A stretch of DNA of 64,000 nucleotides from Eubacteriales bacterium. GTDB taxonomy: Bacteria > Bacillota > Clostridia > Oscillospirales > CAG-272. Each line of letters begins with the position of its first letter. Within the stretch, counting starts at the first letter, position 1. The notes beneath the pieces were generated by a model, which saw nothing but the letters and a program-made list of their open reading frames with translations, did not search any database and was not told where the DNA came from. The position numbers and the translations under genes are program-made. The stretch lies in NCBI GenBank assembly GCA_045588165.1, contig JAZNDP010000015.1, forward strand, positions 12,214-76,213, given 5' to 3'. This document shows, piece by piece, positions 3,176-23,547 of this stretch.

Positions 3176-4711
3176 TTATTTATTCGGTAACCGTACCGCC
3201 TTGGTCACATACAGCAAAACCATGTAAATGCAAACGGAGAGAGAGATCTGCGCGGTGAGAGTCCATGGAGAAGAAGCAACGCCGCCGAACCGCAAGAGCA
3301 GCAATCGAACGAATGTCGTGGAAAGAATGGTGCAAAGCAGAGGTTTTCCAAGCCAATGGATCAATCGAGGCTTTACCTTCGTTATGACAAACAATCTGGT
3401 AATGCTTAACGTAGCATTTACGGTTTCCGTAAAATAGACAGTGATAATGTATCCTGTGATCCCATAGCTTGGGAGCAACGTCCAGACAAGGATAACGGAA
3501 AGCAGGGCGTCAACAATATTGACCCCCATACAAAACACCTGCTCTCCCAGACCCTTGAGAATGGAATCCACAGAGGTATCCAGATACATGACGGGAATCA
3601 GAGGAGCGATCATCAGTATGTATTTTCCCGCGCCAACCGAGGGGTAAACCACATTCGCCAGCTCGCAAGAAAAGCACATCATGATTCCCGCTGTTCCAAC
3701 GGCGAAAATTAAAACCGAATGGAATACTTTGTTGATGATTCGATCAATCCGAGCAGAGTCCCCCTGTGATAAGGATTCCGCAACCTCGGGGATGAGCAGT
3801 CCCGCAAAGGAGCCTGAAAGAGCGGAAGGGAAAAGGATCAGGGGGAACACCATGCTGTGAACCGTTCCATAAGCCGCGAGAGAGGTGTCTCTGGACGCAC
3901 CGCTTCGTTGCAATCCCCAAGGAATGAGCATATGCTCCAGGGTGATCAGTCCCGAGCGCACGTAGGCACTGAAGGCAATGGGGAGCGCGGTACTCATCAG
4001 CTTATCTTGTATTTTTTCGTTTTCTTGTGATGTGGAGGAAGAAGCTGCTCTGTTTCGTTCCAAAAGAAACAGTAAATATTGAACCAAAAAGGCAAGTCCC
4101 TCGGAAATTGCGCCGCCAAGCACGATGGAAAGACACGCGCTTTGGACATCTCTTGCGCCAATCAACGAAATAAAAAGAATACAGCCGTATATCCGAGTGA
4201 TTTGTCCTACGATCTGCACGATCGCGTTTTTATAAACACGTCGTACAGCGGTAAAATATCCGCCCAAAACAGAGGAAAGCGCAATGGGGGGGAGAGTGAA
4301 CGCCAACACCTGCATCGGCAGAACCGTACGGGGATCCTTTAATATTTTATTTCCAATTGCGGGGGCAAGAAAGAACAGGAGCGCACAGCTCACAATGCTG
4401 AAGCACAAAGCGTATGTAATACATTTCTTTACAATGCAAGTAATCTTAGGGCTCTTTAACGAAGACTGTCCCAAGACATGATGTTCTCCCAAGGCATCGG
4501 CAATCAGTTTGGTCGAGGCAAAGCCAATGCCCGAGGTAGCAAGGGTAACAGAAAAGGAATAAACGGTAGTGATCAGAGTAAAAAGCCCCATGGCTACGGC
4601 ACCGATCCGATTGGAAATATAAACGTTAAAGCTGACTGAAATGGAACGGATCAACAAGGAAACTGCCGTAACCAGCAATCCGTTGGCAATAAATTGTTTT
4701 CTTCTGTTCAT
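3176..4711 (-). CDS. MOP-superfamily polysaccharide/lipid II flippase, SpoVB-like
   Basis: About 510 aa and polytopic (around 14 hydrophobic segments), Wzx/MurJ/SpoVB-like. ATG at 4711 with a GGAAGG RBS is preferred over TTG at 4744. Confidence 0.65.
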   Translation of the reverse strand: MNRRKQFIANGLLVTAVSLLIRSISVSFNVYISNRIGAVAMGLFTLITTVYSFSVTLATSGIGFASTKLIADALGEHHVLGQSSLKSPKITCIVKKCITYALCFSIVSCALLFFLAPAIGNKILKDPRTVLPMQVLAFTLPPIALSSVLGGYFTAVRRVYKNAIVQIVGQITRIYGCILFISLIGARDVQSACLSIVLGGAISEGLAFLVQYLLFLLERNRAASSSTSQENEKIQDKLMSTALPIAFSAYVRSGLITLEHMLIPWGLQRSGASRDTSLAAYGTVHSMVFPLILFPSALSGSFAGLLIPEVAESLSQGDSARIDRIINKVFHSVLIFAVGTAGIMMCFSCELANVVYPSVGAGKYILMIAPLIPVMYLDTSVDSILKGLGEQVFCMGVNIVDALLSVILVWTLLPSYGITGYIITVYFTETVNATLSITRLFVITKVKPRLIHWLGKPLLCTILSTTFVRLLLLRFGGVASSPWTLTAQISLSVCIYMVLLYVTKAVRLPNK

Positions 4712-12288: not shown

Positions 12289-14085
12289 ATGTTTAGATCA
12301 CATGTTTTGATTTGTGGCGGTACCGGTTGTACGTCTTCCAACAGTCTCAAGATTCAGGAAGAAATGAACAAGGAGCTCCTTGCCGCAGGTCTTGAAAATG
12401 AGGTCAAAGTCGTCCTGACCGGATGCTTTGGTCTGTGCGCTCTGGGACCGATCATGATCGTATATCCCGAGGGAACCTTCTACAGCAACGTAAAACCCGA
12501 GGATGCTCGCGAGATCGTTCAGGAACATCTGCTGAAGGGTCGTCCTGTGGAAAGACTCGTTTACCACGAGACAACGAGTGAGGACACGCATCATGCGACC
12601 TCTCTCTCCGAAACCACCTTCTATAAGAAGCAGAAGAGAATTGCTCTGTGGAATTGCGGTGTGATCAATCCCGAAAATATTGATGAGTATATCGCAATGG
12701 ACGGTTATCGTGCGTTGGGTAAGGTCCTGACCGAGATGACTCCCGACGACGTAATCCAGACCATTCTGGATTCCGGACTCCGCGGAAGAGGCGGCGGCGG
12801 ATTCCCCACGGGACTGAAGTGGAAGTTTGCTTCTGGCAACCGCGGAAACGTAAAGAAATACGTCGCTTGTAACGCCGATGAGGGTGACCCCGGCGCGTTC
12901 ATGGACCGTTCCATTCTGGAGGGTGACCCCCACGCGGTTCTGGAGGCTATGGCGATCGCAGGTTACGCCATTGGCGCTGACGAAGGTTATATTTACGTTC
13001 GCGCGGAGTATCCCATTGCAATTCACCGTCTGGAGATTGCCATCAAGCAGGCTCGTGAATACGGTCTGTTGGGTAACGATATTTTTGGAACAGGCTTCAA
13101 TTTTGATATTCAGCTTCGCTTCGGCGCCGGCGCGTTCGTATGCGGTGAGGAAACCGCGCTGATGACCTCCATCGAGGGTAATCGCGGTGAGCCCCGTCCC
13201 CGTCCTCCGTTCCCCGCAGTAAAGGGTCTGTTCGGACAGCCTACGGTTCTGAACAACGTAGAGACCTACGCAAATATTTGCCAGATCATTCTGAACGGTC
13301 CCGAATGGTTTGCTTCCATGGGTACTGAAAAGTCCAAGGGAACCAAGGTGTTTGCTCTCGGCGGTAAGATCACGAATACGGGTCTTGTTGAAGTTCCTAT
13401 GGGAACAACCCTTCGTGAGGTTATTGAGGAGATCGGTGGCGGTATTCCAAATGGCAAGAAGTTTAAAGCGGCGCAGACCGGCGGTCCTTCCGGCGGATGT
13501 ATCCCCGCATCTCTGATTGATACTCCCATTGACTACGACAACCTGATCGCCATCGGCTCTATGATGGGATCCGGCGGTCTGATCGTTATGGACGAGAACA
13601 CCTGCATGGTAGACCTTGCTCGTTTCTTCCTTGATTTCACCGTGGACGAGTCCTGCGGTAAATGTACGCCTTGCCGTGTCGGAACAAGAAGATTGCTTGA
13701 GATCCTGGATAAGATCATCGCAGGAAACGGTGAGCTTGAAGATCTGGATAAGCTGGAGGAGCTCTCCAATTACATCAAGAGCGCGTCTCTTTGCGGTCTT
13801 GGTCAGACGGCGCCCAACCCCGTTCTTTCCACTCTCCGTTACTTCAGAGACGAGTACATAGCACATATCGTGGACAAGAAGTGTCCCGCAGGCGTATGTA
13901 AGAGCTTGCTGCAGTACAAGATCGATCCCGATAAGTGTAAGGGCTGTACGCTGTGCGCGAGAAAGTGTCCTGTGGGCGCTATCAGCGGTACCGTTAAGAA
14001 TCCTCACGTGATTGATACCGCAAAGTGTATCAAGTGCGGCGCTTGTATGGACAGCTGTAAGTTCAACGCAATTTATAAGGAATAA
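12289..14085 (+). CDS. hydB: NuoF-like FMN/NAD(P)H-binding subunit of electron-bifurcating-type hydrogenase (HydB)
   Basis: 598 aa. N-terminal [2Fe-2S] (CGGTGC...CFGLC), GRGGGGFPTGLKW loop, CGKCTPCR cluster, and a C-terminal 2x[4Fe-4S] domain (CKGCTLCARKCP, CIKCGACMDSC). Confidence 0.93.
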   Translation: MFRSHVLICGGTGCTSSNSLKIQEEMNKELLAAGLENEVKVVLTGCFGLCALGPIMIVYPEGTFYSNVKPEDAREIVQEHLLKGRPVERLVYHETTSEDTHHATSLSETTFYKKQKRIALWNCGVINPENIDEYIAMDGYRALGKVLTEMTPDDVIQTILDSGLRGRGGGGFPTGLKWKFASGNRGNVKKYVACNADEGDPGAFMDRSILEGDPHAVLEAMAIAGYAIGADEGYIYVRAEYPIAIHRLEIAIKQAREYGLLGNDIFGTGFNFDIQLRFGAGAFVCGEETALMTSIEGNRGEPRPRPPFPAVKGLFGQPTVLNNVETYANICQIILNGPEWFASMGTEKSKGTKVFALGGKITNTGLVEVPMGTTLREVIEEIGGGIPNGKKFKAAQTGGPSGGCIPASLIDTPIDYDNLIAIGSMMGSGGLIVMDENTCMVDLARFFLDFTVDESCGKCTPCRVGTRRLLEILDKIIAGNGELEDLDKLEELSNYIKSASLCGLGQTAPNPVLSTLRYFRDEYIAHIVDKKCPAGVCKSLLQYKIDPDKCKGCTLCARKCPVGAISGTVKNPHVIDTAKCIKCGACMDSCKFNAIYKE

Positions 14086-14097
14086 GAAAGGAGAACA

Positions 14098-15846
14098 GTG
14101 GACATGGAAACTATTAACGTTAAAATTAACGGCGTAGCCTATGCCGTTCCAAAGGGATCCACGGTTCTTGAGGCTGCAAGAGCGGCTAAAATAGATATCC
14201 CCACCCTTTGTTATCTGAAGGATATCAACGAGATCGGCGCTTGCCGTCTGTGTCTGGTTGAGGTATCCGAGGGAGGAAGACCCTTCCGTATGGTTACCGC
14301 GTGTGTATATCCCGTAACCGAGGGAATGGAGATCCTGACCAACACCCCCAAGATCAACAAATCCAGAAAGACCAATCTGGAGCTGTTGCTCTCCAACCAC
14401 GACAGAAAGTGTCTTTCTTGCGTTCGCAGCACAACCTGTGAGCTTCAGAAGCTCTCTCTGGAGTATGGTGTTGACGAAACGAAGTTCTCCGGCACGAAGA
14501 ATGAGTATAAGATTGACAAATCTTCTCCCATCATTCGCGATAACAACAAGTGTATCCTTTGCCGTCGTTGCGTTGCCGCTTGTAAGAATATGCAGGGAAT
14601 TGGTGTAATCGGCGCAAACGACAGAGGATTTGACACCCACATCGGATCGATCTTTGAGATGAGTCTGTCTGAGACCAGCTGTATCAACTGCGGTCTGTGT
14701 ATCGTAGCATGCCCCGTAGGCGCTCTGTATGAGAGAGATGATACCGATAAGATTCTGGATGCGATTGCAGATCCCAACAAGCACGTCTTGATTTGTACCG
14801 CTCCTTCTGTACGTGCGCAGATCGGTGAATGCTTCGGCTTCGAGCCCGGCACGGATTGCGAGGGTAAGATGGTTGCCGCGCTGAAGCGTCTGGGCTTTGA
14901 CGGTGTTTACGACATGAATCTGACGGCTGACCTGACGATCATGGAGGAGGCTACCGAGTTCCTCGGAAGAGTAAAGAACGGCGGCGTATTGCCCATGATT
15001 ACCTCTTGCTCTCCCGGTTGGATCAAATACTGTGAGCACTACTATCCCGAGTTTACCGAAAATCTTTCCACCTGTAAGTCTCCTCAGCAGATGTTTGGCG
15101 CAATTGCCAAGACCTATTATGCGGAGAAGATGGGCTGGAATCCCGAGGATATCTTCTTTGTTTCCGCAATTCCTTGTACCGCAAAGAAATTTGAGGTCGG
15201 CAGACCCGGACAGTCTGCGGCAGGTGTTCCTGACGTTGACGTTGCCGTTACGACCCGTGAGCTTGGCAGAATGATTGCCAAGGCAGGTATTGATTTCAAA
15301 TCTCTGGCTGATGAAGCATTTGATGATCCCTTTGCGTTCGGTAGTGGTGCTGGCGCGATCTTCGGTGCTACCGGCGGTGTTATGGAGGCAGCTCTGCGTA
15401 CCGCTGCGGAGGTAATTGAGAACAAGCCTCTGGAGAAGCTGGACTTTACCGAGGTTCGTGGTATTGAGGGCGTAAAGACCGCATCTTACAAGCTTGGTGA
15501 TATCACTCTGAACGTAGCGGTTGCTTCCGGTACTGCTAACGCGAAGAAGGTTCTCGAGGCAGTGAAGGCGGGTGAAATGAACGTTCAATTCATCGAGATC
15601 ATGGCATGTCCCGGCGGTTGTGTCAACGGCGGCGGACAGCCTATTCAACCCGCACTCGTAAGAGAAACCGTGGATCTGAAGACGGTCAGAGCGGCAGTTC
15701 TTTATAATGATGACGTGAACTGTGACATCCGTAAGTCTCACGAGAACTCCGGTGTAAAGAAGCTTTACGACGAGTTTCTTGGCGAGCCGAATAGCCACAA
15801 GGCACATGAGATTTTGCATACCCACTACGTAAAGCGCGGTCTGTAA
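14098..15846 (+). CDS. hydA: [FeFe]-hydrogenase catalytic subunit (HydA)
   Basis: 582 aa. N-terminal [2Fe-2S], H-x3-C-x2-C-x5-C cluster and 2x[4Fe-4S] domain. H-cluster motifs are L1 TSCSPGW, L2 IPCTAKKFE and L3 EIMACPGGCVNGGGQP. Start is GTG 14098 or ATG 14104. Confidence 0.93.
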   Translation: MDMETINVKINGVAYAVPKGSTVLEAARAAKIDIPTLCYLKDINEIGACRLCLVEVSEGGRPFRMVTACVYPVTEGMEILTNTPKINKSRKTNLELLLSNHDRKCLSCVRSTTCELQKLSLEYGVDETKFSGTKNEYKIDKSSPIIRDNNKCILCRRCVAACKNMQGIGVIGANDRGFDTHIGSIFEMSLSETSCINCGLCIVACPVGALYERDDTDKILDAIADPNKHVLICTAPSVRAQIGECFGFEPGTDCEGKMVAALKRLGFDGVYDMNLTADLTIMEEATEFLGRVKNGGVLPMITSCSPGWIKYCEHYYPEFTENLSTCKSPQQMFGAIAKTYYAEKMGWNPEDIFFVSAIPCTAKKFEVGRPGQSAAGVPDVDVAVTTRELGRMIAKAGIDFKSLADEAFDDPFAFGSGAGAIFGATGGVMEAALRTAAEVIENKPLEKLDFTEVRGIEGVKTASYKLGDITLNVAVASGTANAKKVLEAVKAGEMNVQFIEIMACPGGCVNGGGQPIQPALVRETVDLKTVRAAVLYNDDVNCDIRKSHENSGVKKLYDEFLGEPNSHKAHEILHTHYVKRGL

Positions 15847-15916: not shown

Positions 15917-16999
15917 ATGCATTTTATTACTCCTATTAACGGAACGATGATTCATCTGACCGATGAAAAAATTGTCAAGGGGCAAAATGTCGTCCACTGT
16001 GTCATCGATGCACCTGAATATTACAAGATCGAGATCAACGGAACACCGTGCATCTACCGTGCCGGACGTTGGTATTTGAGTGTTCCGCTTTTGGATAATA
16101 CCCTTGTTTTACAGGCGAAAAGCCTGACTACGGGAGAATGCATAGAAAGTACGGTTTATCGGCTATATACTCCCCGTAAAATATACCGTGTGTCTATTGA
16201 CGATGGAATATGGTTTTTACAGGATATCGCAAAAAATCAAGATCGGTACAAGAGTATTTTTGAAAATCCGTATTTAATGCTTTTGAGGCGGTTACATGAG
16301 GAATACGGAACAAAATTTCATATAAATATTTACAATGAATGTCCCGAGCACGGTGGTTTTCAGCTTTCTATGCTTTCCGACCGATTCAAGGACGAATGGC
16401 TCTCCGTGAACGATTGGGTGACACTGCATTTCCACGCGAAGGCGGATTCCCCCGGATATCCATATGCCACAGCCGACAGAAAAACCACCTATACGGAATG
16501 TAAGCAGGTCATGGATCAGATTGAACGCTTTGCGGGATACAGGGGCGCTGTTACAACCTTACACTTTGCGGAAACAACCGAAGAAGGTATCAGAGGCTTG
16601 TACGATTGCGGAGTAAGAGCGCTTCTTGGTGACTTTTCGCAAAGCAATGCAGGGAATATCCGGTTGTGTTATCAATCCAGCAGAGAGGAGTTTGATACGG
16701 TCCGTCGCTTTGGATTTTGGAAAAACCCAAGAACGGAAATGATCATGTTTTGTTGCGACACCGTATTGAACTGCGGATCACTTGATCAGATGAAGCAAGA
16801 ACTGGAGTGGTTTTCCTATCAGTACCCTGACCGTAGCTTTATGGATATTTTGATCCACGAGCAGTATTTTTACGAGGATTATCATCATTATCTTCCCGAT
16901 TATGAGAAGAGACTCAGAACAGGAATCGAATGGTGTATCCAACACGGATACACACCCGGTCTTGTCAAAGAGCTATTGGACGATCATTTGAGGAAATGA
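15917..16999 (+). CDS. Hypothetical protein (360 aa), function unknown
   Basis: Has its own RBS and is bounded by terminators. Only a weak NodB-like SIDDG element was noticed, which is not enough for an assignment. Confidence 0.4.
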   Translation: MHFITPINGTMIHLTDEKIVKGQNVVHCVIDAPEYYKIEINGTPCIYRAGRWYLSVPLLDNTLVLQAKSLTTGECIESTVYRLYTPRKIYRVSIDDGIWFLQDIAKNQDRYKSIFENPYLMLLRRLHEEYGTKFHINIYNECPEHGGFQLSMLSDRFKDEWLSVNDWVTLHFHAKADSPGYPYATADRKTTYTECKQVMDQIERFAGYRGAVTTLHFAETTEEGIRGLYDCGVRALLGDFSQSNAGNIRLCYQSSREEFDTVRRFGFWKNPRTEMIMFCCDTVLNCGSLDQMKQELEWFSYQYPDRSFMDILIHEQYFYEDYHHYLPDYEKRLRTGIEWCIQHGYTPGLVKELLDDHLRK

Positions 17000-17011: not shown

Positions 17012-17044
17012 CTCCGTGCGGACATATGCCGCACGGAGTTTTTT
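17012..17044 (+). terminator. Rho-independent terminator
   Basis: 10-bp stem CTCCGTGCGG / CCGCACGGAG with a 7-nt loop, then TTTTTT. Confidence 0.8.
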
Positions 17045-17065: not shown

Positions 17066-17094
17066 TTGACAAGACTTTTTTGTTATGATATAAT
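17066..17094 (+). promoter_or_regulatory. Consensus sigma-A promoter
   Basis: TTGACA - 17 nt - TATAAT (both hexamers perfect), 40 nt upstream of ATG 17135. Confidence 0.65.
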
Positions 17095-17134: not shown

Positions 17135-17794
17135 ATGAATCAAAGTAAGTTAAAACTTGTGTTTGGAATCGCCGGAATCGTTCTCGCAGTTGTTGCGATT
17201 GCACTCTTTTTCGTTGGTATTTTTGCAATTGATTTCGGGAATGCCGCAGTGGTAAAGATCATGGTCTTCATCATTTCTTTTCTTTGCCTTGCCTTGGCGG
17301 CAGAGTTGTTCTATTTGCTTTGGATCGAGAATGACAGCGCCCCCAACTACTTCTTGTATAATAGTCAAACCAAGAGAAACATTCCCGCCAATAAGCTGAC
17401 GATCCAAATCATTCACAGCAAAATGAATCGGTATTTGTCCGGCTTCGCTCCCAGCGAGGGAAAGCTTTGGACCGATAAGATTCTGGACAACCCTTACTTG
17501 GATATTGAGGACAAGTTCAAGCCCGCCGTCGCGTATAAGCTTCTGTACGATCTGGCAGAAAAGGACACCGAGCAAGCGTGGAAATGCTTTGAGCAGGCAT
17601 CTGAGGAGACGGTGGAATTCCTTTGCTCCGCATTGGAGATGAATTACGATACGGATATGGCAAGAACCCTGCGCCAGATGAAGGGATCTAATCCCTTGAA
17701 TTTGAAGCTGGTGAGAGACTATATTGTGAAAAACAGAAATTATCTGAAGGGCAAGTTGTGTCGGTATATTTACGATAACATTCAATTGTTCTGA
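17135..17794 (+). CDS. Membrane-anchored hypothetical protein (2 N-terminal TM helices plus soluble C-terminal domain)
   Basis: 219 aa. Hydrophobic stretches at about residues 9-30 and 37-62. I recognised no motif. Confidence 0.5.
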   Translation: MNQSKLKLVFGIAGIVLAVVAIALFFVGIFAIDFGNAAVVKIMVFIISFLCLALAAELFYLLWIENDSAPNYFLYNSQTKRNIPANKLTIQIIHSKMNRYLSGFAPSEGKLWTDKILDNPYLDIEDKFKPAVAYKLLYDLAEKDTEQAWKCFEQASEETVEFLCSALEMNYDTDMARTLRQMKGSNPLNLKLVRDYIVKNRNYLKGKLCRYIYDNIQLF

Positions 17795-17819
17795 TTTCAT
17801 TCTGTTTTGTGTCGTTTGC

Positions 17820-17858
17820 AAATACCATGCCACAAAACGGCATGGTATTTGTTCTTTT
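17820..17858 (+). terminator. Probable terminator
   Basis: 12-bp stem AAATACCATGCC / GGCATGGTATTT with a 7-nt loop and an interrupted T-run. Confidence 0.6.
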
Positions 17859-17887: not shown

Positions 17888-18607
17888 ATGTTCTGTATCA
17901 AAATTGCGGATATACGTATTGCAATCGATAACAAATATAACTACGTAAAGCTCCTTTGTAATGATTACACCGTACCGGAAAGCGAAGGGGTGGATATGAC
18001 CGTACGGGTCTCCGAGGAAGAAATCCTTCGTGAAATGGAAGCCGCAGAGGTGAAAATAACACCTGACTATGCGGAGGGAGTTTGCGTATACCGATCCATC
18101 TGCAGACGACTGCCAATTGATTTTCAATCGTTTTTGATGCATTGCGCCGTGATTGAATACGAGGGACAGGGATATGCCTTCGCCGCCAAAAGCGGTACGG
18201 GAAAATCCACGCATATCGCCCTGTGGCAAAAAAGGTTTGGTGATTCTGTAAAAATCATTAACGGAGATAAGCCGATTATGCGGTTTGCGAATCATCATCT
18301 CCTCGCCTACGGAACACCTTGGTGCGGCAAGGAAGGCTATAACATCAACACTTCGGTTCCATTGACAGCAATATGCTTTTTGGAAAGATCGCAGACAAAT
18401 ACCATTCGAAGAATCAAAGCCGATGAAGCGGTGATGAGAATTTTTCATCAAATCCTGTCTCCCGAGGATATGGAAACGGTAGACGCGTTATTTCCGTTGC
18501 TGGATCGGATGCTTCGACAGATCCCTTGCTACGTATTAGGATGTAATATTTCCGAGGAAGCCGCAGAGGTTGCGTATCAGGGAATGAATCTGAAAAATAA
18601 TTTTTAA
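17888..18607 (+). CDS. P-loop protein with HPr-kinase-like Walker A (putative HprK-related kinase)
   Basis: 239 aa from ATG 17888 (AAAGGAG RBS); the longer 17807 ORF would run through the terminator. Central AKSGTGKST, then INGDKP and GTPWCGKEG. Confidence 0.5.
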   Translation: MFCIKIADIRIAIDNKYNYVKLLCNDYTVPESEGVDMTVRVSEEEILREMEAAEVKITPDYAEGVCVYRSICRRLPIDFQSFLMHCAVIEYEGQGYAFAAKSGTGKSTHIALWQKRFGDSVKIINGDKPIMRFANHHLLAYGTPWCGKEGYNINTSVPLTAICFLERSQTNTIRRIKADEAVMRIFHQILSPEDMETVDALFPLLDRMLRQIPCYVLGCNISEEAAEVAYQGMNLKNNF

Positions 18608-18626
18608 TCACAGAAAGAGAATCAAT

Positions 18627-18890
18627 ATGAAAATCAAAAAGGGCTTTGTAGTCAGAGAGCTTGCCGGTGAGTGCGTCGTCGTGGCACTTGGTGAGGCAAG
18701 TAAGGTCTTTAACGGAATCATTAAGCTGAACGCGACGGGAAAGATCCTTTGGGAAATGCTCGCCCGCGGCTGCGAAAAGGAAGAAGCGGTTGATGCGATA
18801 TTGAAGGATTACGAGATTGACCGTGAAACGGTAGAAGCGGATTTTGACCTCTTTGTAGAAACCTTAAAGGGAGCGAATATTCTTGAATAA
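18627..18890 (+). CDS. PqqD-family protein (RRE-type peptide chaperone fold)
   Basis: 87 aa. Typical PqqD layout: beta-strand start (FVVRELAGECVVV), LNATGKILWEML, and an acidic C-terminal helix region (ETVEADFDLFVETL). Confidence 0.75.
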   Translation: MKIKKGFVVRELAGECVVVALGEASKVFNGIIKLNATGKILWEMLARGCEKEEAVDAILKDYEIDRETVEADFDLFVETLKGANILE

Positions 18891-19365
18891 CCGAGAAATA
18901 AATTTGACGGATGCGATTGCGGTCATTGAGGAGGTCCTGGAGGGGGGCGGGGAATTCCGTCTTTACCCGAAGGGAACCAGTATGCTACCGCTTCTGCGGC
19001 AGGGCAAGGATTCTGTTGTTTTAAGCAAAAGACCTGATTCCGCAACGCCCCTAAAAAAGCACGATATTGCTTTTTACCGACGCAAAAACGGTCAGTTTGT
19101 CCTTCACCGTGTTATGAAAACATGTCGGGACGGCAGCTTTACGATGTGCGGAGATAATCAGACCGTCCCGGAGACGGGAATCCTTCCCGATCAGATCATA
19201 GGATATGTTTGCAGAATATATAAAGGGGAAAAAGAGCTCTCTTTCCATTCTGTAAGATATAAAATATACGTATTTTTTTGGACCTGTATGCCATATCGGC
19301 GTTGTATCAGATTTTTCAGAAGAGGCTTTCGCTTTATAAAACGTTGCCTTCTGGGAAATAAATAA
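18883..19365 (+). CDS. S24/S26-family serine peptidase (signal-peptidase/LexA-like fold)
   Basis: 160 aa. Nucleophile motif KGTSMLP, second catalytic motif FVLHRVMK, and a basic C-terminal tail. The TTG start overlaps the PqqD stop by 8 nt. Confidence 0.65.
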   Translation: MNNREINLTDAIAVIEEVLEGGGEFRLYPKGTSMLPLLRQGKDSVVLSKRPDSATPLKKHDIAFYRRKNGQFVLHRVMKTCRDGSFTMCGDNQTVPETGILPDQIIGYVCRIYKGEKELSFHSVRYKIYVFFWTCMPYRRCIRFFRRGFRFIKRCLLGNK

Positions 19366-19388: not shown

Positions 19389-19428
19389 ATACCGCAAAAG
19401 ACTGCAGTTTTTTGCGGTATATTTTTTT
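19389..19428 (+). terminator. Rho-independent terminator
   Basis: 11-bp stem ATACCGCAAAA / TTTTGCGGTAT followed by ATTTTTTTG. Confidence 0.75.
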
Positions 19429-19443: not shown

Positions 19444-20103
19444 ATGATAACCTTTACAAGCATTCAAAACGATCCCACGATCAAAGAATATATCAGCAAA
19501 GCTGACCAATCACTGTTGGCGCTGGGATACACCGAGCACAGCTTCGCTCACGTAGGGAAGGTCTCTCATTCGGTGGAATATATTTTAACAAGCCTTCATT
19601 TTCCCGAGCATGATATTGAACTTGGAAAAATCGCGGCATATATGCATGATATTGGCAATCTGGTAAATAGAGTGGATCATTCCCAAAGCGGAGCAATTAT
19701 GGCATTTCGTCTATTGGATCATATGGGCATGGATCCCGCGGATATAGCGACCATTGTCACCGCCATAGGGAATCACGACGAGGGAACGGGAGTTCCTGTC
19801 AATCCGATTGCCGCGGCTCTGATTTTAGCCGATAAATCCGATGTACGAAGAAGCCGCGTTCGTAATCGGGATGAGGCAACCTTTGATATCCATGACCGAG
19901 TGAATTATTCAGTCGTGGAATCAGATCTGACGATTCTGGATAAGGAACGGGAGATTCGCCTGAATCTGGTGATTGAAACGCAATACAGCTCGGTCATGGA
20001 TTATTTTGAGATATTCCTGAACCGTATGATTCTTTGCAGAAAAGCAGCGGAAACCTTAGGGTTGAAGTTCCGCCTGATCATCAATGATCAAATGCTGTTA
20101 TAA
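19444..20103 (+). CDS. HD-domain phosphohydrolase
   Basis: 219 aa. Motifs HSFAH, YMHDIGN, GNHDEG and ADKSD, typical of the HD superfamily. Confidence 0.75.
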   Translation: MITFTSIQNDPTIKEYISKADQSLLALGYTEHSFAHVGKVSHSVEYILTSLHFPEHDIELGKIAAYMHDIGNLVNRVDHSQSGAIMAFRLLDHMGMDPADIATIVTAIGNHDEGTGVPVNPIAAALILADKSDVRRSRVRNRDEATFDIHDRVNYSVVESDLTILDKEREIRLNLVIETQYSSVMDYFEIFLNRMILCRKAAETLGLKFRLIINDQMLL

Positions 20104-20191: not shown

Positions 20192-20485
20192 ATGAATATG
20201 CTTGAAAATAAAGGATATCAGCTGTTGATGAGAGCGATCGTTTCTATTCAAAACGAAGAGGAATGTATGGCATTTTTGGATGACTTGATGACCAAGAAGG
20301 AGTTGAATGACATCGCCCAGCGACTTCTGGTTGCGAAAATGTTATCGGATCAGGTAGTTTATAACAAAATTGTCGAGGAAACCGGCGCCAGTACCGCAAC
20401 CATCAGCCGTGTCAATCGCTGTATTTTATATGGAGACGGAGGGTATTCCCGTATTCTCGAACGAATTAAGGGAGAACAGAAATGA
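20192..20485 (+). CDS. TrpR-like YerC/YecD-family protein
   Basis: 97 aa. Motifs LT..E...IAQRL.VAKML and TGASTATISRV... match the YerC/YecD family as I recall it. Stop overlaps the hisZ start (ATGA). Confidence 0.75.
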   Translation: MNMLENKGYQLLMRAIVSIQNEEECMAFLDDLMTKKELNDIAQRLLVAKMLSDQVVYNKIVEETGASTATISRVNRCILYGDGGYSRILERIKGEQK

Positions 20486-21609
20486 GTTTTTCTAAGCAGG
20501 TATTGAAAAAAGAAGAAAGTGTCACGTACAGCTTAAGAGATCTGTACCGCAAGTACGGCTACTCCTTGTACAAGGTTAGCAAGTTTGAGGAGTACGATCT
20601 GTACGCTCATAACAAAAGCTTTCTCGTCAGCCAGAACGTTCTCACTTTTACCGATACCAACGGAAAGCTGTTGGCGCTGAAACCTGACGTGACCTTGTCT
20701 ATCATTAAAAACATTCCCGATCAGGACACGGTGATACATAAGCTTTGCTATAATGAGAACGTATACCGCACCTCCGCGGAAAGCAACGGCTTCCGCGAGA
20801 TCATGCAAACCGGACTGGAGTGTATCGGTAAGATTGATCTTTACGCCGAGTGCGAAGTAATCATGTTGGCGCTCCGCAGTCTGGAAACAGTCAGCAAGGA
20901 TTATATTTTGGACCTCTCACACATGGGAATCATTGACGGGCTTCTTGAATATACCAATATCGATCCCGCGGACAGAGAACCCTTTATCCGATTGATCGAG
21001 AGTAAAAACACCAATTCCTTGGCATATATTTGCGATCAACAGGGAATTTGTGAGGACATCAAGAAAAAGCTATGTACCCTTGCTGATCTGTATCTGCCCA
21101 TCAATCAGGCGCTTCCCGTTCTTGCCTCCCTGGTGCTTGGAGAAAAGATGAAGCAAGCCTATGAAAACCTGAAAAACATTGGGGCGGTTTTAAGCGCGTA
21201 CGGACTGGACAATCGGCTTTATCTTGACTTTTCTATTGTGAATGATGCCACATATTATGATGGATTGAGCTTCCGTGGATTTATTAACGGGATTCCCGAC
21301 AGCGTTCTCTCGGGAGGGCGGTATGATCGGTTGCTGCACCGTCTGGGTAAACAATCGGGCGCCATCGGATTTGCGGTTTATCTGGACCGTCTTGCACGGT
21401 TCGAGGCAGAAAGCGAGAGCTTTGACGTTGACGTAATGCTTTGGTATGATCCCGATACCAAGCCACAGGACCTTCTGGTAGCACAACGCCGTCTATTAGA
21501 AAACGGAAATCGTGTCATCACTGTTTCCGAGCCGTGTGAATCGGTTCGATACCGTCAACTGGTAAAATTGACAAATGGAGGAATGATCACCCTTGAAACC
21601 AATGATTAA
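20482..21609 (+). CDS. hisZ: ATP phosphoribosyltransferase regulatory subunit
   Basis: 375 aa. HisRS-like catalytic-core paralogue without an anticodon-binding domain, sitting directly upstream of a short-form hisG. Confidence 0.9.
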   Translation: MSFSKQVLKKEESVTYSLRDLYRKYGYSLYKVSKFEEYDLYAHNKSFLVSQNVLTFTDTNGKLLALKPDVTLSIIKNIPDQDTVIHKLCYNENVYRTSAESNGFREIMQTGLECIGKIDLYAECEVIMLALRSLETVSKDYILDLSHMGIIDGLLEYTNIDPADREPFIRLIESKNTNSLAYICDQQGICEDIKKKLCTLADLYLPINQALPVLASLVLGEKMKQAYENLKNIGAVLSAYGLDNRLYLDFSIVNDATYYDGLSFRGFINGIPDSVLSGGRYDRLLHRLGKQSGAIGFAVYLDRLARFEAESESFDVDVMLWYDPDTKPQDLLVAQRRLLENGNRVITVSEPCESVRYRQLVKLTNGGMITLETND

Positions 21610-22231
21610 CATTGCTCTGCCCAAAGGCCGACTGGGGGAGAAAGCTTACGGTATGTTTGAAAAAGCGGGCTTTGAGTGTCCTGCCATTCACGAGGAAAGC
21701 CGCAAGTTGATTTTTGAAAATCCGGAAAAGGGAGTTCGATATTTCTGGGTGAAGCCCTCTGACGTTGTAATTTACGTTGAGCGGGGCGCCGCTGATATCG
21801 GAATTGCGGGTAAGGATATTATTTTGGAATACGAGCCCGATATCTACGAGCTTGCGGATCTGGGAATCGGAAAATGCAGAATGGCGGTTGCCGCAAAAAA
21901 AGATTTCTGCGACCGCAGAGACCGTACCTTGCGAGTGGCAACGAAATTTCCCAATATCGCAAAGACCTATTATTCCTCTTTGAGCAGAGAGATCGATATC
22001 ATCAAGCTGAACGGCTCCATTGAGCTGGCACCAATCCTCGGGCTTTCCGACGTGATCGTGGATATCGTGGAAACGGGAAAAACACTCATCGAGAATGATC
22101 TTGAGCCGAAGAGCGATATTGTCAACATCAGCGCTCGCCTGGTAGCAAACAAGGTCAGCTATAAGTTTAAAAACGAAAGCATTCGAGCCATCTGTGAGCA
22201 GATGAATCGAGTGATCGAAAACGGGCAGTAA
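21593..22231 (+). CDS. hisG: ATP phosphoribosyltransferase, short form
   Basis: About 210 aa. Motifs INIALPKGRL and DIVETGKTL. Start is TTG 21593 or ATG 21602. Confidence 0.93.
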   Translation: MKPMINIALPKGRLGEKAYGMFEKAGFECPAIHEESRKLIFENPEKGVRYFWVKPSDVVIYVERGAADIGIAGKDIILEYEPDIYELADLGIGKCRMAVAAKKDFCDRRDRTLRVATKFPNIAKTYYSSLSREIDIIKLNGSIELAPILGLSDVIVDIVETGKTLIENDLEPKSDIVNISARLVANKVSYKFKNESIRAICEQMNRVIENGQ

Positions 22232-22248
22232 GTCCATAGGAGGATGCT

Positions 22249-23547
22249 GTGATACGGATATATAATTATAACGAGATTGATCGGTCGGAGATTTTCTCCA
22301 GAGAAATCGGCAGCACGAAAAATGTCGAGGGTGTGGTTTCCGATATTATTTGTGAGGTTCGAAGCAGAGGAGATGCCGCTCTTTTTGACTACTGTGAACG
22401 GTTCGACCGCGTGAAGCCGGATTCGCTGGAGGTGACCCAAGAGGAGATCGATAAAGCTTTTGCATCGGTAGATCCCACTTTTATCGAGATTCTGAAAAAG
22501 GCATCGAAGAACATTTACGCCTTTCATTCCAGACAGGTTCGGAATAGCTTTGTAATCAATGAAACCGATGGCGTGGTTATTGGGCAAAAGGTGATTCCGA
22601 TTGAAAAAGTCGGTCTTTACGTACCGGGAGGAACAGCGGCTTATCCGTCCTCCGTATTGATGAACTCCATTCCTGCCAAAATTGCAGGCTGTAAGGAGAT
22701 CGTTATGGTGACCCCCCCCTCACGGGACGGCAGTGTAAACCCCGTCATTCTTGCCGCCGCGAAGCTTGCAGGCGTAGGACGGATCTTTAAGGTTGGTGGT
22801 GCGCAGGCGATTGCCGCTCTGGCATACGGAACCGAGACCGTTCCCGCAGTGGATAAAATCGTCGGTCCCGGCAATGCATTTGTTGCCGAGGCAAAGAAGC
22901 AGGTATTCGGTAAGGTTGCCATCGACATGATCGCGGGTCCCAGTGAAATTTTGGTAATTGCGGACAGCACGTGCAATCCTGTCTACGTAGCCGCCGACCT
23001 TTTGTCTCAAGCAGAGCACGATAAGATGGCAAGTGCGGTTTTGGTTACCGATTCTTCGGAGCTTGCAGAACAGGTATCCCTTGAACTGGAGCGTCAAATT
23101 CCTCTTCTGGGAAGGGAAGAGATCGCGCGTGCATCCATTGATCAGAACGGCAAAATCATCGTCACAGACAGTATTTTACAGGCTGTAGAGGTTGCAAACA
23201 GCATAGCCCCCGAGCATCTGGAGCTCTGTGTAGACGATCCCTTCCGCTATTTGGATAAAATTCAACACGCGGGATCGATCTTTATGGGAAAATATTGTCC
23301 CGAAGCCTTGGGAGATTACTTTGCCGGTCCCAATCACACGCTACCTACCAGCGGAACGGCACGCTTTTCCAGTCCCTTGTCGGTGGACGATTTCGTTAAG
23401 AAAACACAATTCACCTATTATACCGAGGAAGCGCTCCAAAAGGTAAGCAAGGATATTGAGTTTTTTGCTCAAAAGGAAGGCCTTGGCGCTCATGCAAAAA
23501 GCGCCGTGATCCGATTTGAGGATTTCATAGAAACCGAGGAGAAATAA
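22249..23547 (+). CDS. hisD: Histidinol dehydrogenase
   Basis: 432 aa. Motifs IDMIAGPSE, QAEHD and EHLEL, in his-operon context. Confidence 0.95.
   Translation: MIRIYNYNEIDRSEIFSREIGSTKNVEGVVSDIICEVRSRGDAALFDYCERFDRVKPDSLEVTQEEIDKAFASVDPTFIEILKKASKNIYAFHSRQVRNSFVINETDGVVIGQKVIPIEKVGLYVPGGTAAYPSSVLMNSIPAKIAGCKEIVMVTPPSRDGSVNPVILAAAKLAGVGRIFKVGGAQAIAALAYGTETVPAVDKIVGPGNAFVAEAKKQVFGKVAIDMIAGPSEILVIADSTCNPVYVAADLLSQAEHDKMASAVLVTDSSELAEQVSLELERQIPLLGREEIARASIDQNGKIIVTDSILQAVEVANSIAPEHLELCVDDPFRYLDKIQHAGSIFMGKYCPEALGDYFAGPNHTLPTSGTARFSSPLSVDDFVKKTQFTYYTEEALQKVSKDIEFFAQKEGLGAHAKSAVIRFEDFIETEEK

Follow-up and report, generated by a model that had tools for sequence, protein, structure and literature searches.

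A predicted kinase, a PqqD-type RRE and an S26-type peptidase encoded together in an Oscillospiraceae genome: a probable reduced form of the LPP core

The 64-kb stretch of contig JAZNDP010000015.1 (Eubacteriales bacterium) that was analysed here, referred to as the window, carries three adjacent genes that encode an HprK-fold P-loop protein (K), a PqqD-type RiPP recognition element (RRE; RiPP, peptide made by the ribosome and modified after translation) (B) and a SipW-like peptidase (S). This trio is probably a reduced, Clostridial version of the K-B-S core of a linear polyphosphorylated peptide (LPP)-type pathway for RiPP maturation. LPPs are RiPPs of Bacilli that were described by Popov et al. 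(Nat Commun 2026, May; PMC13381572); their core comprises the LppA precursor, the HprK-like kinase LppK, the discrete RRE LppB, the SipW-like peptidase LppS, the MsbA-like exporter LppD and the nucleoside triphosphate (NTP) transferase LppN (PMC13381572). An earlier note on this DNA, made from the sequence alone, had considered that the trio might be an undescribed system; since the combination of a kinase, a discrete RRE and a SipW-like peptidase is the validated LPP core (PMC13381572), the trio is not new in kind.

Similarity of the trio to the LPP core

The three genes are co-directional and tightly packed on the forward strand. The K gene (positions 17888-18607; 239 aa, ATG start) is followed after 19 nt by the B gene (18627-18890; 87 aa), the end of which overlaps by 8 nt with the S gene (18883-19365; 160 aa, TTG start); the sizes, motifs and overlap given in the earlier note were all found at these positions. 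When compared with four related species, K, B, S and TM219, a 219-aa protein that is encoded directly upstream of the trio (17135-17794, forward strand), had ratios of nonsynonymous to synonymous substitution (dN/dS) of 0.02-0.13 wherever dS could be estimated. These ratios, together with the thousands of homologous protein clusters for K and the 659 for S, indicated that these are real genes and not chance open reading frames (ORFs).

K carries the sequences AKSGTGKST, INGDKP and GTPWCGKEG, and both the P-loop SGTGKST (S102-T108) and the NGDKP motif (N125-P129) were invariant among its homologues. The protein database places K in the Pfam family PF27840 ('ScmC'), an assignment that is a precomputed annotation; a search of K against a local Pfam copy gave no match. 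The best NCBIfam match was TIGR04249 ScmC (E = 9.3e-10), with 38.3 bits against a cut-off of 125. An AlphaFold2 model of K, built from 27 homologues, had a predicted local distance difference test score (pLDDT) of 90. In a Foldseek search of the PDB, the top matches to this model were the C-terminal kinase domain of HPr kinase/phosphorylase (HprK/P; 1kkm and 1jb1, E of about 2e-6), followed by ATP-dependent phosphoenolpyruvate carboxykinase (PEPCK), in agreement with the HprK-like fold that had been proposed for K before any structure search.

K could be compared directly with LppK by means of a genuine lpp cluster of metagenomic origin (L095; gene order A-N-K-B-S-D), which was located with a three-sequence LppS alignment. 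The LppS of L095 shares 97% identity with one of the cluster-1 proteins of PMC13381572, and the L095 precursor (MKPYVKPSVLTHSKVKFET...) is one substitution from that listed for the strain in the same study. K matched the LppK of this cluster (L095 6960-7745) by BLASTP (E = 1e-10, 25% identity over 138 aa) and by hhalign (probability 97.3%, E = 1.8e-11), and a match to PF07475 was absent from both LppK and K. By analogy with LppK, K is predicted to be an ATP-dependent Ser kinase that acts on an RRE-bound precursor. Six cysteines of K (C24, C66, C72, C146, C163 and C219) were invariant across 27 close Oscillospiraceae homologues; their conservation suggests a metal or redox site, none of which is described for HprK/P.

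B matched the Pfam PqqD family (PF05402) above the gathering score (E = 1.1e-14). Among PDB sequences it matched TbiB1 (E = 1e-7), LppB (9x8z chain B; E = 3.7e-4) and PbaB1 (E = 0.044), so that the PqqD/RRE assignment proposed earlier was upheld. In LppB, residues N33, D70 and F74 grip the YxxP motif of the leader (PMC13381572). The equivalent residues of B, N35, D72 and F76, were kept in 59/60, 54/60 and 56/60 family members, respectively. B is a discrete PqqD-family RRE and, by a direct match that is weak, the counterpart of LppB. Nothing useful was found in the literature on the pairing of S24/S26 peptidases with PqqD proteins.

S contains the motifs GTSMLP, FVLHRVMK and CGDNQ, and its TTG start was backed by the homologues, all of which begin MNN(G/R)E. 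Every one of the 26 family members matched TIGR02228 (archaeal/endoplasmic reticulum-type signal peptidase I; best E = 3.2e-7) and 19 of the 26 matched the SipW model. The residues S33, H75 and D91 were invariant in the family and correspond to the catalytic residues S29, H68 and D93 of LppS (PMC13381572). Four cluster-1 LppS proteins matched S by BLASTP with E values of 1e-7 to 1e-11 and 24-30% identity. S and LppS also share an architecture that consists of an N-terminal helix, the catalytic domain and a basic hydrophobic tail, with no N-terminal transmembrane helix; accordingly, S has no hydrophobic N-terminus or membrane anchor and ends in a hydrophobic and basic C-terminal tail. When PDB sequences were searched with a profile of the S family, no match was significant and the best was to LexA (E = 0.32); the S26-type assignment, which the earlier note had already favoured, is therefore based on the TIGR02228 matches and the comparison with LppS. 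The GxSMxP, HR(V/I) and GDN motifs are shared with SipW, Sec11 and archaeal signal peptidase I (MEROPS S26B). Unlike SipW-type enzymes, however, S has no N-terminal anchor, scores 20 against a cut-off of 190 for the SipW model NF046067, and its gene is grouped with those for an RRE and a kinase instead of genes for secreted substrates of the TasA/TapA type; the latter arrangement is seen at a genuine sipW-tasA locus (L092).

Several features were common to the window and to lpp clusters. The lpp operon of P. alginolyticus has the order A-K-B-S-D-N (PMC13381572), and both the K-B-S order and the overlap of the B and S genes were found in the window. K and S were clearly homologous to LppK and LppS, and B weakly so to LppB. 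Clostridial relatives of the trio carry an NTP_transf_5 protein, an MsbA-like exporter and peptides with a Yxx(P)-type leader, and some of them lie in polysaccharide loci. Viewed against the known systems, the trio represents no new kind but the LPP K-B-S core in a reduced, Clostridial variant. The window form differs from LPP clusters in several respects: an LppA-type precursor, LppN and LppD were not found with the trio; the flanking genes encode hydrogenase and histidine-biosynthesis proteins and there is no capsular or exopolysaccharide locus; the host belongs to the Oscillospiraceae and not to the Bacilli; and there is an additional conserved two-helix membrane protein, TM219. Since the precursor, LppN, LppD and the exopolysaccharide context were lacking, the locus was named LPP-like (K-B-S core) and not an LPP cluster.

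The LPP pathway, the evidence for which comes from gene deletions, mass spectrometry and in-vitro cleavage, provides a model for how the trio may act. LppK polyphosphorylates Ser3 of the core and accepts Ser only, and its deletion abolishes phosphorylation; LppS does not cut off the leader unless it is presented by LppB, and prefers phosphorylated substrate (PMC13381572). By analogy, B would bind the leader of a ribosomal precursor via a Tyr-x-x-(Pro)-x-hydrophobic motif, and K would transfer phosphate from ATP, perhaps more than once, to a Ser near the point where leader and core meet. S, a cytoplasmic peptidase with a Ser/His/Asp catalytic set, would then dock on the B-leader complex via its N-terminal helix and cut the leader off. 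The substrate would be a peptide or protein that bears a leader and has its gene at another site in the genome. It is from this analogy that we infer the kinase activity and its site, the RRE-dependent cleavage, the substrate in trans and the role of TM219. The scheme coincides with one suggestion of the earlier note, that of an RRE-guided kinase and peptidase pair acting on a substrate encoded elsewhere.

Relatives of the trio in other genomes

Homologues of K were abundant, with more than 4,000 clusters at 90% identity and, at 50% identity, 9,309 protein clusters, 1,376 of which had E values of 1e-30 or below. A K homologue was encoded by at least 470 GTDB species representatives from the Oscillospiraceae, Acutalibacteraceae, Lachnospiraceae and Erysipelotrichaceae. 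Neighbour counts were based on 53 species-level loci that had enough flanking sequence: S adjoined K in 46/53 and B adjoined K in 38/53, confirming in other genomes the co-occurrence that the earlier note had put forward as a check. The K domain was also found in natural fusions (P0368, P0434, P0417, P0453 and P0440) with NTP_transf_5 (two clusters), Y_phosphatase3, radical SAM and Peptidase_S24 domains.

An extended form of the locus was present in Lachnospiraceae and Erysipelotrichaceae, where an orthologous trio (K 45-55% identical) was accompanied by NTP_transf_5 (PF14907) and an ATP-binding cassette (ABC) exporter. Some of these loci added a radical SAM/SPASM enzyme, and some lay inside polysaccharide loci with LCP transferase, priming glycosyltransferase and CpsB/D-like genes. 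An N-type (NTP transferase) gene was found in 6/42 related loci and a D-type exporter in 9/42, and neither was present in any of the 20 TM219-type (Oscillospiraceae) loci.

The extended loci encoded precursor-like peptides of 48-81 aa with a common leader, for example MKKNYVIPEISVIQFENEDIVTAS... The Clostridial leader has the form M-K-x-Y-x-x-(P/A/L)-x-hydrophobic-x-V-(I/V)-x-F-(D/E)-N-(E/S)-D-(V/I)-(V/I)-T-(A/T/S)-S; the cores were variable and often Cys/Gly/Trp-rich, and none of the peptides matched NCBIfam models. They were encoded at L066 11506-11667, L068 8160-8315, L082 8057-8221 and 11501-11665, L054 3965-4132, L032 15048-15206 and L034 63-308, and on the reverse strand at L040 2976-3131, L043 5679-5852 and L061 2240-2404. 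The leader of LppA is YxxPxVLxHQxIxFETxxS, i.e. Px9Fx[T/A] (PMC13381572), whereas the corresponding spacing in the Clostridial relatives is P-x6-F-(D/E)-N.

A related arrangement was found on the Butyrivibrio fibrisolvens plasmid pNP243 (L093 8572-10595, NZ_CP146964.1), which encodes a K-like protein, a 57-aa peptide, a PqqD protein and an S24/S26 peptidase. The peptide, MKKAYVKPELKASMNG...CYDPCWNPCYNPCQPSYGRIW, contains the sequence YVKPEL and is encoded between K and B; nucleotidyltransferase, glycosyltransferase, ABC-transporter and two-component-system genes surround the trio. This locus resembles Butyrivibrio loci that were called 'lasso' clusters in a 2020 rumen survey (PMC7533575).

Other arrangements were seen in smaller groups of genomes. 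In Acutalibacteraceae, K-B-S and an ABC exporter gene come after a gene for a 98-130-aa lipoprotein-like protein ('c8'), which lies 4-10 nt upstream of K (L044 9618-9995, L049 9638-9997, L056 1886-2233, L060 9648-9995, L062 9603-9995 and, in L083, directly upstream of K). The c8 proteins combine a lipobox signal and a linker of low complexity with a C-terminus that is conserved as ...GG(T/S)DPYVEDIF or ...NDPA(V)EDPF; they were weighed as precursors, and had Sec/lipobox signals and no leader motif. K occurred alone, without B or S, in a few species (L057, L075 and L084); the genes after it in L057 and L075 encode an intramembrane protease of the CPBP family and, next, a TadA-like deaminase, and in L084 the deaminase gene is the first one after K. 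On the B. thuringiensis plasmid pHS18-3 (L094 5330-7480, NZ_CP012102.1), a radical SAM-PqqD-S24/S26 peptidase operon without a kinase was located a few kb from a separate mersacidin-family lantibiotic gene, with two recombinase genes between. This operon shows the RRE and S26 pair as what appears, from gene order, to be a portable leader-removal unit that can be used with other tailoring enzymes.

TM219 and the competing explanations

The view that the trio comprises only three genes, as it was first described, had to be revised, since TM219 often accompanies it (22/53 loci). TM219 has two N-terminal transmembrane helices and a helical domain of about 150 aa, which by the positive-inside rule is predicted to face the cytoplasm, on the same side as K, B and S. 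It belongs to no Pfam or NCBIfam family, and its AlphaFold2 model (pLDDT 80) had no fold match in the PDB. TM219 adjoined K in those 22 loci even though the upstream flanks vary, and was absent from the other 31/53; in a distant clade, which has no RRE, 0-17 nt separate the TM219 stop codon from the start of K. Its dN/dS was 0.04-0.12. TM219 is a possible fourth component of the system, and is probably a membrane partner rather than a substrate. It was disfavoured as a kinase substrate because a YxxP motif is lacking and none of its Ser residues is invariant in the two clades. The role of partner or scaffold was accordingly ranked above that of substrate, and an explanation of the locus centred on TM219 was considered doubtful.

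Two variants of the TM219 locus were observed. In one Oscillospiraceae species (L022), a gene for a 213-aa histidine phosphatase (PGAM-like, 'RHGESEAN') is located between TM219 (1868-2515) and K (3294-3998). This insertion and the fusion of K to a tyrosine phosphatase may indicate reversible phosphorylation. In GCA_015657155.1 (L090/L091 1966-4287), a TM219 homologue (51% identical) was found at the matching syntenic position; K-B-S and the HD-domain gene are missing there, and genes for Lgt and a CPBP (Rce1-like) protease are directly 3' of the TM219 homologue.

The transcription signals of the window placed TM219 behind its own promoter. A sigma-70-type sequence (17066-17094, forward strand; TTGACA-17-TATAAT with an extended -10 TG, 12/12 matches) precedes TM219 and is itself directly preceded by a terminator (17012-17038). 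The hairpins reported earlier on both sides of the trio were found at 17818-17852 and 19389-19420, both on the forward strand: the former, between TM219 and K, is intrinsic-terminator-like, with a 14 bp stem and a T-run, and the latter, with a 14 bp stem followed by ATTTTTTTGT, closes the transcription unit of the trio. No promoter was detectable in the 36 nt from the first hairpin to the K start in the window, where this hairpin is probably a leaky terminator or attenuator. Most of the closer relatives have a hairpin of different stem sequence at the TM219/K position, and many have a promoter after it.

A number of results weigh against the interpretation of the trio as the core of an LPP-type pathway. 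No precursor-like ORF was found in the 64-kb window or in about 30 TM219-type relatives (10 kb on each side). The precursor hunts covered the window and 86 loci; in the clade of the window, no match or candidate was obtained with the Clostridial leader pattern, with [YW]xxPx-hydrophobic in the first 45 residues and a ribosome-binding-site filter, with the published Px9Fx[T/A] motif, or by clustering of all YxxP-like short ORFs across loci. The check for precursor ORFs that the earlier note had advised thus yielded no candidate by leader motifs, either near the trio or elsewhere in the window, and the substrate in trans is assumed and not seen. LppN and LppD accompany LppS in nearly all LPP clusters, and none is linked to the window trio; when proteins of related loci (11 N-type, 12 D-type) were used as tblastn queries against the window, no NTP_transf_5 was found, and the nearest ABC transporter (D-like) genes were at 58.4-61.8 kb, about 40 kb from the trio. 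The window proteins are only 24-30% identical to LPP proteins. By pairwise identity, the RRE and peptidase of the window group with clusters 4 and 9 of the published sequence similarity network ('RRE others') and not with the LPP clade: S is 39% identical to a cluster 9 Ruminococcus protein and 32% to cluster 4, and B is 40% identical to the 'other RREs' of PMC13381572 as against 21-27% to LPP RREs. LPP clusters, which are often embedded in capsule loci, have a patchy distribution driven by horizontal transfer (PMC13381572), whereas the window trio has a conserved chromosomal position and is conserved from species to species. The existence of a sub-clade with TM219-K-S and without any RRE does not fit a strictly RRE-dependent mechanism. 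Finally, to our knowledge the kinase activity of the ScmC-type family (PF27840) has never been measured.

Despite these points, an LPP-type maturation core remained the best explanation of the trio. Because the precursor, NTP transferase and exporter are missing at the locus, the substrate is most likely encoded elsewhere; Supplementary Data 1 of PMC13381572 gives the location of RRE and precursor as 'elsewhere in the genome' in some cases. That study assigned the Clostridial RRE-linked peptidases to clusters 4 and 9, labelled them 'RRE others' and left them unstudied. The Clostridial trio is a lineage distinct from, and much larger than, the LPP systems of Bacilli.

A different account would make TM219-K-B-S a domesticated protein-processing or signalling module that phosphorylates and/or cleaves the cytoplasmic domain of TM219, or that is anchored by TM219 and acts on another host protein, and that yields no secreted natural product. 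TM219 lies directly upstream of K, which is the place of the precursor in the P. alginolyticus operon and in L034; it stays beside K while the upstream flanks change, and the distant clade with its 0-17 nt gap dispenses with the RRE. The absence of an exporter, NTP transferase and small precursor from the locus, the conserved chromosomal position and strongly purifying selection, the lack of a promoter for K after the TM219 hairpin in the window and the predicted cytoplasmic location of the TM219 soluble domain, like that of K, B and S, would all be accommodated. We nevertheless consider this account unlikely. LppK takes only Ser, and TM219 offers neither a Ser that is invariant in both clades nor a YxxP-type motif; a classical leader peptide is suggested by the retention in B of the residues that bind it; and a terminator and a separate promoter lie between TM219 and K in most of the closer relatives. 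Furthermore, one genome has TM219 in place without the trio, and 31/53 K loci have no TM219. It is similarly improbable, in our estimation, that in gut Oscillospiraceae the LPP-type machinery has become a vertically inherited, exporter-less housekeeping module that acts, together with TM219, on one of the cell's own proteins or on a phosphopeptide signal inside the cell rather than on a secreted natural product. If domestication did occur, RiPP enzymes would have been put to use in the physiology of the host, and a first approach to the purpose of LPP-type chemistry would be at hand.

The remaining explanations were less probable still. B and S could be a generic cassette of RRE and leader peptidase, with K an ATPase, chaperone or nucleotide-dependent adaptor and a chemistry unlike that of LPP. 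PqqD and S24/S26 pairs do occur without K, as on pHS18-3 and in anammox, Acidobacteria and Bacteroidota clusters (PMC13381572 data), some members of the K family are fused to radical SAM enzymes, and the six invariant cysteines hint at a metal site that is not known in HprK. K is, however, homologous to LppK, whose deletion abolishes phosphorylation; its nearest structural matches, HprK/P and PEPCK, are kinases of this P-loop fold, and the fusion of K to a tyrosine phosphatase suggests phosphate chemistry. A non-kinase role for K was therefore judged quite unlikely. The earlier note had likened the trio to the accessory set of paeninodin-type lasso-peptide clusters and to the HPr-rel-A cassette, and a leftover of such a set, or a member of SynChlorMet/HPr-rel-A, is the least probable of the explanations considered, to the point of being hardly tenable. 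The resemblance to paeninodin and pseudomycoidin clusters (PadeK/ThcoK/PsmK, B1 RRE, PsmN) holds for the HprK-like kinase and the discrete PqqD RRE (PMC7533575) and extends to the NTP_transf_5 partner, which is found in relatives of the window trio. It does not hold for the protease, since lasso clusters use a macrolactam cyclase and the Cys protease B2 and not an S26-type Ser peptidase; lasso kinases, moreover, modify a C-terminal Ser, whereas LppK modifies Ser3 of the core. No lasso cyclase or B2 was present among the genes within about 5 kb on either side of the trio. The broad P-loop family and the pairing with PqqD are common to K, SynChlorMet ScmC (TIGR04249/PF27840) and HprK-related kinases A and B (TIGR04352/TIGR04355), and TIGR04249 is the best NCBIfam match of K. 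That match is nevertheless far below the cut-off (38 vs 125), and the score of K against the kinase of HPr-rel-A (TIGR04352 kinase A with TIGR04353 PqqD) was 18.3 bits against a cut-off of 200, over the P-loop segment only, so that the HPr-rel-A assignment was not sustained. No ScmE/F radical SAM homologue, or other radical SAM/SPASM enzyme, was found in the 64-kb window. A literature search for ScmC and SynChlorMet turned up only unrelated uses of the acronyms, and we know of no S26 peptidase that is a defining member of the SynChlorMet or HprK-related cassettes. Hundreds of species keep the trio together, and purifying selection acts on it, so that it is not a decaying remnant; a non-functional remnant was ruled out by the dN/dS values and the invariant catalytic residues. 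The trio's orphan status, as first described, was borne out by the lack of a precursor or radical SAM enzyme in 64 kb, of an exporter nearby and of a cyclase or B2 within about 5 kb.

Published LPP work has been confined to Bacilli, and the K-B-S core extends to gut and rumen Clostridia, where it has two forms: a full cluster with its own leader-peptide family and a minimal form at a conserved position, paired with TM219. If the minimal form acts in trans or on a host protein, it would provide a simple conserved system in which to probe the role of polyphosphorylated peptides, and a caution for genome-mining tools, since a trio that contains an RRE is not necessarily a complete cluster in itself. 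Should the minimal form be no more than a split cluster, PF27840 'ScmC' proteins encoded beside PqqD and S24/S26 proteins could be named LppK-like, LppB-like and LppS-like.

Genes surrounding the trio

The genes within about 5 kb on either side of the trio encode hydrogenase subunits, a 360-aa protein, TM219, an HD-domain protein, a TrpR-like protein and HisZ, HisG and HisD. In Oscillospiraceae, the window included, the position of the locus is conserved, with hydrogenase genes on one side and his or pyr genes on the other. In the window, the upstream housekeeping genes encode NADH-dependent [FeFe]-hydrogenase subunits of 598 aa and 582 aa (12289-15846), and downstream a TrpR-like gene is followed by hisZ, hisG and hisD (20192-23547), which are also housekeeping genes. 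The 360-aa ORF between the hydrogenase genes and TM219 (15917-16999) had no Pfam or NCBIfam match and, among 86 related loci, recurs only in the closest relative (L007). Directly past the terminator of the trio, a gene at 19444-20103 encodes a 219-aa HD-domain protein (PF01966, borderline score). In the closest relatives this gene usually lies next downstream; in others it is displaced or absent. It is probably syntenic with the trio rather than functionally linked to it.

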